DNA of 64,000 nt from Escherichia phage EcNP1. Made by a program: the position numbers and the translations under genes. Shown piece after piece: positions 8,773 through 10,430 of the stretch. The notes below the pieces were generated by a model, which saw only the letters and a list, made by a program, of their open reading frames with translations, made no database searches and was not told where the DNA came from. The DNA is taken from sequence record NC_054910.1; one strand, given 5' to 3'. Positions within the stretch are counted from its first letter, which is position 1; every line of letters begins with the position of its first letter.

Positions 8773-9348
8773 TTAATTACCACGGGCTGCATTAGCAACG
8801 GCGTAAGCATACTGAACATTAGCGTCTTTAAACGTACCTTTAGAGGTATCTAGTTCTGCCTTAAAGCCGCCTTTAGTCATAACCTCGGCGAATTCTTTAC
8901 GGAAAGCCATTGCATCAAGACCTTTCCATGCCGATTTGTGCTTGGCAAATTCAAGACCGGCGAAGTTGACAGCCTTAGCTAATTTATTATCAATAACCCA
9001 TTTACCAGCTTTAGGCGCAAACACTGGGCCTTTCTGTTTAGAGAATAATTTTAAATTCCAGCGACGAAGGTCACCGTCAGCTTTAACAAAAGCTGCGTCC
9101 AAGTTACTAGCAACAACATCTTGAATATGGCCAAATTTAAGCCCATCAACTTCAATATTTAGATCAGTACGCCAGCGAAGTCCTTCCCAAGCGAAAGCTT
9201 TAAAGTCGGAAGCTTTTGTAGCTAAGTATCGTTCAATAGGGGCTGTTTTAGGGTCAAAACCATTTCCTCGGTAAGTCCACTCATCTTTATTAATGCCTTT
9301 GGCCTTTTCCACAGAAGCTTCAGCGATAAATTCTTTATACGTTTTCAT
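8773..9348 (-). CDS. ipIII: internal protein III (capsid-targeted, injected)
   Basis: 191 aa; N-terminal capsid-targeting motif MKTYKEFIAE; size matches T4 IPIII. Confidence 0.8.
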   Translation of the reverse strand: MKTYKEFIAEASVEKAKGINKDEWTYRGNGFDPKTAPIERYLATKASDFKAFAWEGLRWRTDLNIEVDGLKFGHIQDVVASNLDAAFVKADGDLRRWNLKLFSKQKGPVFAPKAGKWVIDNKLAKAVNFAGLEFAKHKSAWKGLDAMAFRKEFAEVMTKGGFKAELDTSKGTFKDANVQYAYAVANAARGN

Positions 9349-9369
9349 GTGTTTCCTTGTTTGTTTTGA

Positions 9370-9406
9370 TAGAGTAATTATACCATATTAATACTTAAGC
9401 GTAAAC
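9370..9406 (-). promoter_or_regulatory. early promoter upstream of ipIII
   Basis: minus strand GTTTAC-N17-TATAAT ending about 25 nt upstream of the ipIII ATG. Confidence 0.5.
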
Positions 9407-9409
9407 TGT

Positions 9410-9664
9410 TTAAGCTTTACCGCCAGAAATAATTCCGAAGTTGTTAAAATCGTATCCAATATCGTCAACATCTACTTTAGGGCTTACTACAACATAAGCA
9501 ATTTCACTACGTTTTGCATAGGTGTTTATTTCTTTACCATTGCCGCCTGAGAAAGAATACCCATTACGTTTTAATGAGCCAAAATCTTCGGCATCACCAA
9601 TGAAAGCTTTAACTTTAAATTTGGGGCCTTTGGCATCTGCTTCAGCGATAAATTCTTGATACAT
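9410..9664 (-). CDS. internal-protein-like (ipII-like)
   Basis: 84 aa starting MYQEFIAE|A, the IP capsid-targeting motif; AGGAAA SD. Confidence 0.6.
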   Translation of the reverse strand: MYQEFIAEADAKGPKFKVKAFIGDAEDFGSLKRNGYSFSGGNGKEINTYAKRSEIAYVVVSPKVDVDDIGYDFNNFGIISGGKA

Positions 9665-9676
9665 TTTAATTTTTCC

Positions 9677-10090
9677 TTAGTAAATTGATTTACCATAGTA
9701 TTTGTACCAAGTAGGACGTTGAGCAATTTTTTCATCTAAGCATGCTTGACTTATCGCAATGGACGCTTCGTCCGGGACATAATTATTACGAAATTCGGCA
9801 GGGATGTCGGAAATATCCTGGACAGTCGTGTCCTTGATTTTGAAACCACGTTTCAAGCATTCAGCGATTAGCTCGATTTGACGTAAACGTAAAAATTCGA
9901 GTTTGTCGTAAAAGAATGTTACGTGACCTGTGCCTAATATAAATGTTGGAGAGATTTTAAAATCCTTTACACATTTACCGTTTTGAACATGTTTACGGAC
10001 TGCACCAAATACGCGTGGTAATTCACGATACTCAGCCATAAGATGTTGGTCGGCCAATTCAGAAACAAGTGTTAAATTGATACGGGTCAT
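9677..10090 (-). CDS. denV: endonuclease V, pyrimidine-dimer DNA glycosylase
   Basis: 137 aa from [29 protein letters not shown], near-identical to T4 endo V as recalled; GGAGG SD; track ORF has a 4-codon upstream extension. Confidence 0.95.
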
Positions 10091-10147
10091 AATTTCCTCC
10101 AAGTAGTTGATGAATGTATAGTATCAAAACCCTTGGAGGAAGTAAAC
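10091..10147 (-). promoter_or_regulatory. early promoter with -10 inside a hairpin
   Basis: GTTTAC-N18-TACTAT; inverted repeat TTCCTCCAAG/CTTGGAGGAA flanks the -10; second arm is the denV SD. Confidence 0.5.
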
Positions 10148-10148
10148 A

Positions 10149-10430
10149 CTATTTTTCTGACGCGCCTGAAATATATTTTTCAAGACGTTGTTTCATTAGC
10201 GAGCCGTTCTTAGCGATTTCTTCCGGTTTATCGCACATACGCAACAAGGCTTCAAGCTTAACGATATCGCCGGTACGTTCAAATTTGCGAGTATCTATCT
10301 TACTAGCAAGTTCAGAAATACGTGCTAATAGACTTTCGGCTTCAACCAAAGCTGCACCTAACTTAGTTGCAAATGTGTCAGTAGCTTCGTTAAGAATAGA
10401 TTCTGATAAAAATTCACTATATGTTTTCAT
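10149..10430 (-). CDS. internal-protein-like protein
   Basis: 93 aa from [10 protein letters not shown]|S (capsid-targeting motif with L-x-E cleavage signature); ATGA overlap with the stop of e. Confidence 0.6.

Follow-up and report, generated by a model that had tools for sequence, protein, structure and literature searches.

The 64-kb stretch of Escherichia phage EcNP1 DNA analysed here (the window) carries, between the lysozyme gene e and vs.8, a cluster of small genes whose products begin with a capsid-targeting sequence (CTS), as the internal proteins (Ips) of phage T4 do. We consider it very probable that this region is the e-proximal hypervariable Ip locus of Tequatrovirus, essentially as it occurs in Escherichia phage vB_EcoM_Nami, that it is a mosaic of RB69-type and T4-type DNA, and that its CTS proteins are packed into the head and injected. 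The feature is already known: it is a described kind of locus in an already-deposited genome, ordinary for the phage group, and the literature describes two hypervariable Ip loci, with counts of Ip variants that range from more than 10 to more than 30 (PMC12373910; PMC2839356). The whole Ip region is encoded on the minus strand, and the gene order in plus coordinates is vs.8-ipIII-84aa-denV-93aa-e, then nudE, the two genes without established names being designated by the length of their products in amino acids (aa):

8053-8595/8643, minus strand: vs.8
8753..8770, minus strand: short terminator-like hairpin (AGGCC, 8 nucleotides (nt), GGCCT, then ATTTAC), just after the ipIII stop codon
8773-9348, minus strand: ipIII, internal protein III, 191 aa, leader MKTYKEFIAE; mature part T4-type
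9319..9348, minus strand: left junction of the mosaic, in the CTS-coding 30 nt of ipIII; the block of high identity to RB69 starts at 9319
9377..9405, minus strand: early-type promoter, TTTACG-17-TATAAT with TG, 10/12 matches in a promoter scan
9410-9664, minus strand: 84-aa gene, leader MYQEFIAE; RB69ORF125c family
9677-10090, minus strand: denV, pyrimidine-dimer DNA glycosylase (endonuclease V), RB69-type allele
10091..10148, minus strand: promoter-plus-stem-loop element upstream of denV, T4 early-type promoter GTTTAC ... GATACTAT
10149-10430, minus strand: 93-aa gene with CTS leader; Ip5 family, RB69ORF127c type
10427-10915, minus strand: e, T4-type lysozyme, last ~100 nt RB69-type
10929..10949, minus strand: two T4 late-promoter boxes (TATAAATA) upstream of e, from direct sequence reading

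The initial annotation had proposed that three CTS-bearing genes are interleaved with denV, and this holds: ipIII, the 84-aa gene and the 93-aa gene surround it, with the coordinates and leaders exactly as first given for open reading frames on the minus strand.

Mosaic structure of the e-to-vs.8 interval

Identity to T4 and to RB69 was profiled in 100-nt steps, and junctions were taken from three-way alignments. From 9319 to ~10520, a stretch holding the 84-aa gene, denV, the 93-aa gene and the final ~100 nt of e, the window is 94-99% identical to RB69, whereas the RB69 flanks are only 58-85% identical to it (about 58-80% for e, nudE and vs.8). Outside this block the window is T4-type, with 94% identity over 5500-8733 and 90% over the ipIII body (8756-9358). 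Within e, positions 10432-10531 are 78% identical to T4 and 98% to RB69, and beyond 10532, into the rest of e and nudE, the values are 92-99% to T4 and 58-85% to RB69. Read from these alignments, the locus is a recombination mosaic of RB69-type and T4-type DNA.

On the left side, the spacer, promoter and first ~13 leader nt of ipIII match RB69 ORF124c, including Lys5 (Gln5 in T4), and from codon 11 onward the gene has the sequence of T4 ipIII. As the three-way alignment places the junction there, one crossover lies inside the leader-coding sequence common to all Ip genes. The right junction falls in e at ~10523-10540, and a third is marked by a linker of ~21 nt, unique in sequence, that separates the ipIII hairpin from the region upstream of vs.8. 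The C-terminus of e in the window is RB69-type (...WKAYI, versus ...WDAYKNL in T4), so that the exchange of the Ip cassette also changed the end of an essential lysis gene. In the mechanism we propose, an RB69-type block made up of the 3' end of e, ORF127c, denV, ORF125c, and the 5' untranslated region and first half of the next CTS would have recombined at both of its ends: in the CTS codons, where a T4-type ipIII body takes over, and within the 3' end of e, beyond which the lysozyme gene is T4-type. The short homologies for such cassette shuffling could be provided by the CTS-coding direct repeats (32 nt, in three copies at 9317-9348, 9639-9670 and 10399-10430) and by the promoter-stem-loop elements.

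The two components of the mosaic are also visible in the divergence of the genes themselves. IpIII is 92% identical in aa to T4 IPIII (phrog_5341 at 1e-115), and its DNA is 90% identical to that of T4, with a synonymous divergence (dS) of 0.34 and a ratio of nonsynonymous to synonymous divergence (dN/dS) of 0.10. Homology to T4 ipIII ends at 8756, 17 nt beyond the stop codon; the hairpin at 8753..8770, found by a terminator scan (RNA fold -9.5 kcal/mol, z -3.25), is from its sequence the terminator-like end of the ipIII cassette. The promoter at 9377..9405 sits in the 61-nt spacer upstream of ipIII, which is identical to the spacer upstream of RB69 ORF124c and showed no significant fold (z -0.45).

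By contrast, denV (PF03013 with 53 bits, the gathering score being 23; phrog_1183) is 97% identical in aa to the RB69 protein at dS 0.06, versus 91% in aa and 78.6% in nt to T4 at dS 1.35. Residues 1-34 of DenV are nonetheless identical to those of T4 DenV, and the N-terminal region is retained with Thr2 and Glu23, the established catalytic residues of T4 endonuclease V. This is a DNA-repair gene and not a capsid-targeted one, and it sits inside the Ip hotspot in several genera. In the element upstream of it, the -10 region is enclosed by a perfect 10-bp inverted repeat (10094-10103 / 10132-10141) whose 3' arm includes the Shine-Dalgarno sequence of denV; the element folds at -19.1 kcal/mol (z -4.6), and a similar one lies upstream of ipI (z -3.6). 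Both combine an early-type promoter with a stem-loop between cassette genes, as do the promoter-stem-loop (PeSL-like) elements described at the Ip loci of T-even phages (Arbiol et al. 2010, PMC2839356, which refers to Repoila et al. 1994 for these elements); the Ip variants on record there number more than 30.

The closest deposited relative, vB_EcoM_Nami (MZ502380, Tequatrovirus), is 99.9% identical to the window in DNA, with 16 substitutions and 4 indels in 20.5 kb. Its gene order is the same and its 84-aa and 93-aa proteins are 100% identical; in its annotation the 84-aa gene is hypothetical, whereas the products of the 191-aa and 93-aa genes are entered as putative internal head proteins. 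The complete vs.8-ipIII-84aa-denV-93aa-e arrangement occurs in 70 GenBank phage records (Nami and 69 further Tequatrovirus). Exact co-linearity and protein identity with a well-characterised T-even phage, which the initial annotation regarded as the observation that would speak against it, is thus largely what we found: the 84aa-denV-93aa segment is shared with RB69 at 94-99% DNA identity, and the whole locus with these 70 deposited phages.

The 84-aa and 93-aa genes

The 84-aa protein belongs to phrog_2667 ('internal head protein'), a family that includes RB69ORF125c, VR7 ORF127c and S16 gp70.1, and its gene is carried by 215 phage records. It is 94% identical in aa to RB69 125c and 72-75% to the VR7 and S16 proteins, and dN/dS in the family is 0.12-0.16 at dS above 1. 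The 93-aa gene gave a dN/dS of 0.30 against T2 Ip5, and values of 0.12-0.30 at dS above 1 indicate that both open reading frames are real genes. The label 'ipII-like', under which the 84-aa gene had first been entered, had to be dropped: the BLASTP match to T4 IPII was limited to YQEFIAEA, so that the two have only the leader in common and similarity of the mature parts was not found. Aligning the family to IPI with hhalign likewise matched the leader only, and the AlphaFold2 model of the protein was unusable (mean predicted local distance difference test score, pLDDT, 47).

Two homologue searches by word index had little depth (10 and 5 clusters), and an exhaustive HMMER search of 1.8 billion representative proteins gave only 6 representatives; because of this last result, we regard the family as small and phage-restricted. 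The only two distant relatives among these proteins (P0017 and P0018; 34-43% identity) keep a CTS (MQTFHEFLVE and MKTYNEFIAE), and across the family the leader is kept in four genera. Since it persists at such low identity, the leader is a conserved part of the protein and not a mere DNA linker.

In the window, however, this leader is incomplete. The first start codon (9670-9668, minus strand) reads ATT AAA ATG in the window and Nami only, among the sequences compared, whereas RB69, mar005P1 and three IMG/VR contigs have ATG AAA ATG TAT (MKMYQEFI.E) at the homologous position; the VR7 and S16 homologues begin MKTYQEFITE and MKTYEEFINE. From this comparison the short leader (MKMYQEFIAE to MYQEFIAE) is a lineage-specific defect and the ATG is ancestral.

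These data bear on an alternative in which the CTS-like 5' ends serve as linkers for recombination or translation initiation, and the 84-aa and 93-aa proteins are cytoplasmic and unpackaged; for the 84-aa protein this would concern at a minimum the present phage, in which its gene lacks the first ATG. The position of the crossover exactly within CTS-coding DNA would fit such a role, as would the shortened leader of the window and Nami, the scrambled leader of the deposited RB69 ORF127c (see below) and the placement of the 84-aa gene 12 nt after denV, behind an early-type promoter. We nevertheless consider this alternative very improbable: retention of the leader at the protein level at 34-43% identity and across four genera is unexpected for a DNA linker, ten leader residues suffice to package foreign proteins (PMC9026906), and none of the Y, F, I and E determinants has been lost.

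The 93-aa protein matches phrog_3499 ('internal head protein') at 9e-47 and belongs to the Ip5 family together with T2/T6 Ip5 and RB69ORF127c: it is 50% identical over 72 residues to mature T2/T6 Ip5 (E 1e-18 to 1e-19), and its VR20 homologue is annotated ip5. The gene is present in 237 records at an identity of at least 88%, and among those listed it adjoins e in every one. With T2 and T6 Ip5 the protein has in common a two-step leader ending at Glu15, which is invariant in the alignment of the family; because of this invariance, the conserved gp21 cleavage site of the Ip5 family is probably after E15. Judging by its leader, the 93-aa protein itself is likely to be cut after E10 and/or E15, with an extra L-x-E site at E10 in the window variant, whose leader ends ...LNE versus MKTFKEFATKTTITE in T2/T6 Ip5. 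It is also 8-9 residues longer at the C-terminus than T2/T6 Ip5. Whereas Ip5 of T2 and T6 sits at the ipI locus next to 57B, the 93-aa gene lies at the other Ip locus and is translationally coupled to e, the stop codon of e overlapping its start (ATGA, 10427-10430).

From their sequence, the two TATAAATA boxes upstream of e could support late transcription of e together with the coupled 93-aa gene; by sequence motifs, the 84-aa gene and ipIII would be reachable only by read-through or from early-type promoters. AlphaFold2 predicted an all-helical 93-aa protein (pLDDT 72; predicted template-modelling score, pTM, 0.35), Foldseek found nothing below E=4 for this model in the PDB, and we therefore claim no function from its fold. 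When the Ip5-family profile was aligned to IPII with hhalign, only residues 1-12 (the leader) matched. In the deposited RB69 sequence (AY303349, 4070-4114), the leader of ORF127c is scrambled by a compensated frameshift (MKTYMNFYQNLSLNE), unlike that of the 93-aa protein of the window; this could be a sequence error from 2003 or a real loss of the targeting leader.

Capsid-targeting leaders across the window

In a six-frame translation of the window, a strict regular expression for the CTS gave 4 matches versus 0.01 expected from 200 shuffles, and the motif is hence not a chance occurrence. Aromatic residues Y4 and F7 are reported to determine targeting, and I/L8 and E10 processing (PMC9026906); Y4, F7, I8 and E10 are kept in the leaders of ipIII and of the 84-aa and 93-aa proteins, the shortened leader MYQEFIAE having all four determinants but being 2 residues short (ATG to ATT). 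Leaders of the T4 internal-protein type (MKTYQEFIAE) were found in ipIII, the 93-aa protein and a 187-aa protein encoded elsewhere (MKTYAEFLTE). The first 10 residues of IPIII are enough to load foreign proteins into T4 heads and are themselves cleaved off by gp21 (PMC9026906; PMC3012670), and the machinery that reads and removes the leader, the prohead core and gp21 protease, is encoded in the same window. Beyond the e-to-vs.8 locus, which holds ipIII and the 84-aa and 93-aa genes, the features concerned are:

14962-15525, minus strand: 187-aa CTS gene, MKTYAEFLTE (cassette gene 1), from the regular-expression match; phrog_2280
15651-16123, minus strand: second cassette CTS gene, MKSYAQF followed by a stop after codon 7; frameshifted
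18767-19054, minus strand: ipI, internal protein I, 19-residue leader; 99% identical to T4 IPI, PF11634 (IPI_T4) at 2e-53
47351-49487, plus strand: prohead core and maturation genes gp67, gp68, gp21 protease (48009-48647) and gp22 scaffold, called by matches to phrog_1064, 1049, 207 and 237

The count of six CTS genes given initially stands with two qualifications: ipI and the 187-aa gene are intact additions to the three genes around denV, whereas the second cassette gene is frameshifted and the 84-aa leader is shortened. The window does have more CTS genes than T4 has named internal proteins (three). The expectation that some of the six proteins might be genuinely new was not borne out. Every one of them falls in an existing PHROG family and has homologues in the databases; the 84-aa and 93-aa proteins match their Nami counterparts at 100% identity, and the 187-aa protein is 99.5% identical to that of Salmonella phage F13076. 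With the leader removed, none of the six resembled another by BLASTP, and Pfam had no family for four of the six, or for IPIII. On the plus strand, a loose version of the pattern also matched MLLEFKQFLYE, the beginning of the gene at 57463-57693, which is UvsW.1 (phrog_1143), not gp67 and not a head protein; its resemblance to a CTS is most likely that of a chance look-alike, 0.2 matches to the loose pattern being expected.

ipI adjoins 57B at the other Ip locus, and the two cassette genes, between e.8 and tRNA-Arg, lie outside both of the Ip loci named in the literature. The 187-aa gene is present in 163 phage records, including RB14ncORF136c; among the 40 records listed, all 38 that are annotated (38/38) call it a hypothetical or phage protein and none an 'internal protein'. 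In the second cassette gene, a T-run near 16102 has four T instead of the five in Nami (16099-16102), where a 157-aa open reading frame is intact; this deletion is one of the four indels between the two phages, and either a real mutation or a homopolymer error in sequencing could explain it. With the frameshift repaired, the protein begins MKSYAQFLNE and matches phrog_2280 at 2e-54. BLASTP showed no similarity between the two cassette proteins, even though that family is matched by both.

Several further observations concern these regions. In the second cassette gene, translation could restart at a GTG (16094) and give a product of 147 aa that has no leader. A hairpin (ccccgaccgaaaggttgggg followed by TTTTT) lies upstream of each cassette gene, hence also after the second, which is itself preceded by a TATAAATA box. 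The non-coding stretch upstream of the second gene (16149-16330, minus strand) contains a motif resembling a tRNA T-arm (GGTTCAAATCC); ARAGORN and Rfam called no tRNA at 16149-16330, and an Rfam scan of 8000-20000 returned tRNAs only. The GGTTCAAATCC stretch may be derived from, or correspond to, the small stable RNAs rnaC and rnaD, whose place in T4 is between e.8 and tRNA-Arg. Beside ipI, a 57B-like gene (19127-19582, minus strand) has a 9-nt in-frame deletion relative to Nami at ~19421.

Function and relation to other T-even loci

By analogy with T4 IPIII, the leader of each CTS protein would attach it to the scaffolding core of the prohead; removal of the leader by the gp21 protease, which cuts after Glu, would follow, and the mature protein would stay in the head to be injected with the DNA. 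After injection, T4 Ip1, Ip2 and Ip3 act against one GmrSD-type (type IV) restriction enzyme apiece, which they block with no cross-protection, and the same authors predicted this role for the other proteins encoded at the two Ip loci (PMC12373910); on E. coli ECOR17 the phage needs ipIII (10.1101/2022.04.14.488369). Being 99% and 92% identical to the T4 proteins, ipI and ipIII should act as they do in T4, and would block GmrSD-type enzymes like their counterparts. On our analysis the 84-aa and 93-aa proteins are, most likely, packaged and injected as well, and inhibit other GmrSD-like variants of first-response defence.

Some points weigh against parts of this interpretation. Presence in the virion and injection are predictions for the 84-aa and 93-aa proteins. 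In their mature form, neither showed similarity in sequence, profile or fold to Ip1-3 or to solved structures, sequence searches of the PDB included, and because of this the argument for an anti-GmrSD role comes only from their locus and leader; a literature search returned no paper on RB69ORF125c or ORF127c. The 84-aa leader is two residues short, unless translation starts at the ATT, and since the first ATG is lost its targeting could be impaired. As for the mosaic, the exchange between RB69 and Tequatrovirus could have run in either direction, and a shared ancestry of the junctions among the 70 phages is an assumption.

The 84-aa and 93-aa proteins might also be packaged as generic DNA-associated or charge-neutralising head-filling proteins, which is the classical view of internal proteins, rather than as specific inhibitors of defence. 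Both are small and lysine-rich (11 lysine and arginine residues and an isoelectric point of 8.2 in the mature 84-aa protein; 14 and 8.1 in the mature 93-aa protein, taken after E15), and lysines of internal proteins contact DNA phosphates (PMC3012670). Their net charge, however, is near zero (11 basic versus 10 acidic residues, and 14 versus 13), unlike that of mature IPIII (IPIII*, isoelectric point 9.6); their presence or absence varies among T2, T4, T6 and RB69, as would fit accessory host-range factors; and all three T4 Ips are specific GmrSD inhibitors (PMC12373910). We therefore regard a generic head-filling role as unlikely and retain that of injected anti-defence proteins.

A broader proposal, in which we place somewhat less than even confidence, is that this phage injects more effectors than are annotated. 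The CTS genes between e.8 and the tRNAs would then form a third locus of injected proteins, the RB69ORF125c-type and Ip5-type proteins would act as inhibitors of GmrSD subtypes that are so far unmatched, or of other first-response defences, and the 30 nt of CTS DNA would act as a cross-genus (Tequatrovirus, Mosigvirus) crossover site that can plug any open reading frame into capsid delivery.

The Ip loci are an injected counter-defence toolbox of T-even phages that helps to determine host range, and they therefore bear on the choice of phages for therapy. The window adds no new kind of element to this toolbox. It is a clean, base-level example of its reshuffling, in which a crossover in the codons of the targeting leader joins an RB69-type module to a T4-type ipIII, and it supplies candidates to be matched with orphan GmrSD variants, namely the 84-aa protein, the Ip5-like one and both products of the e.8-tRNA locus. 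Worth retaining are the crossover in the CTS codons, the ATG-to-ATT change of the 84-aa gene, the frameshifted cassette gene and the third CTS locus.

The content of the e-to-vs.8 hotspot differs in nearly every reference phage compared (T4, T2, T6, RB69, VR7, S16 and mar005P1). In the direction of transcription, the orders are:

T4: e-ipIII-ipII-denV-vs.8
T2: e-ipIV-hypothetical-vs.7, no denV
T6: e directly beside regB, the whole block absent
RB69: e-ORF127c-denV-ORF125c-ORF124c-ORF123c-vs.8
VR7: e-denV-ip10-ORF127c-ip7-vs.8
S16: e-ip4-gp70.1-vs.8
Window: e-93aa-denV-84aa-ipIII-vs.8

The order in the window is thus unlike that of T4, as the initial annotation had it. T4 uses the same slot between e and vs.8, with an orthologous ipIII, a denV, and CTS leaders and early-promoter elements of the same kind. 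Its denV, however, adjoins vs.8, whereas in the window denV stands between Ip genes and is an allele anciently diverged from that of T4; the window lacks T4 ipII and has two Ip genes unrelated to any Ip of T4. RB69 (Mosigvirus) is co-linear with the window from the 3' end of e through ORF127c, denV, ORF125c and the spacer to the first half of the next CTS, and then goes on with ORF124c (Ip10-like) and ORF123c where the window has a T4-type ipIII. As in the PeSL cassettes (PMC2839356), an early-type promoter lies within a stem-loop, here upstream of denV and ipI; unlike in those cassettes, the crossovers mapped here fall in coding DNA, in the codons of the CTS and at the 3' end of e, and not in the stem-loops.

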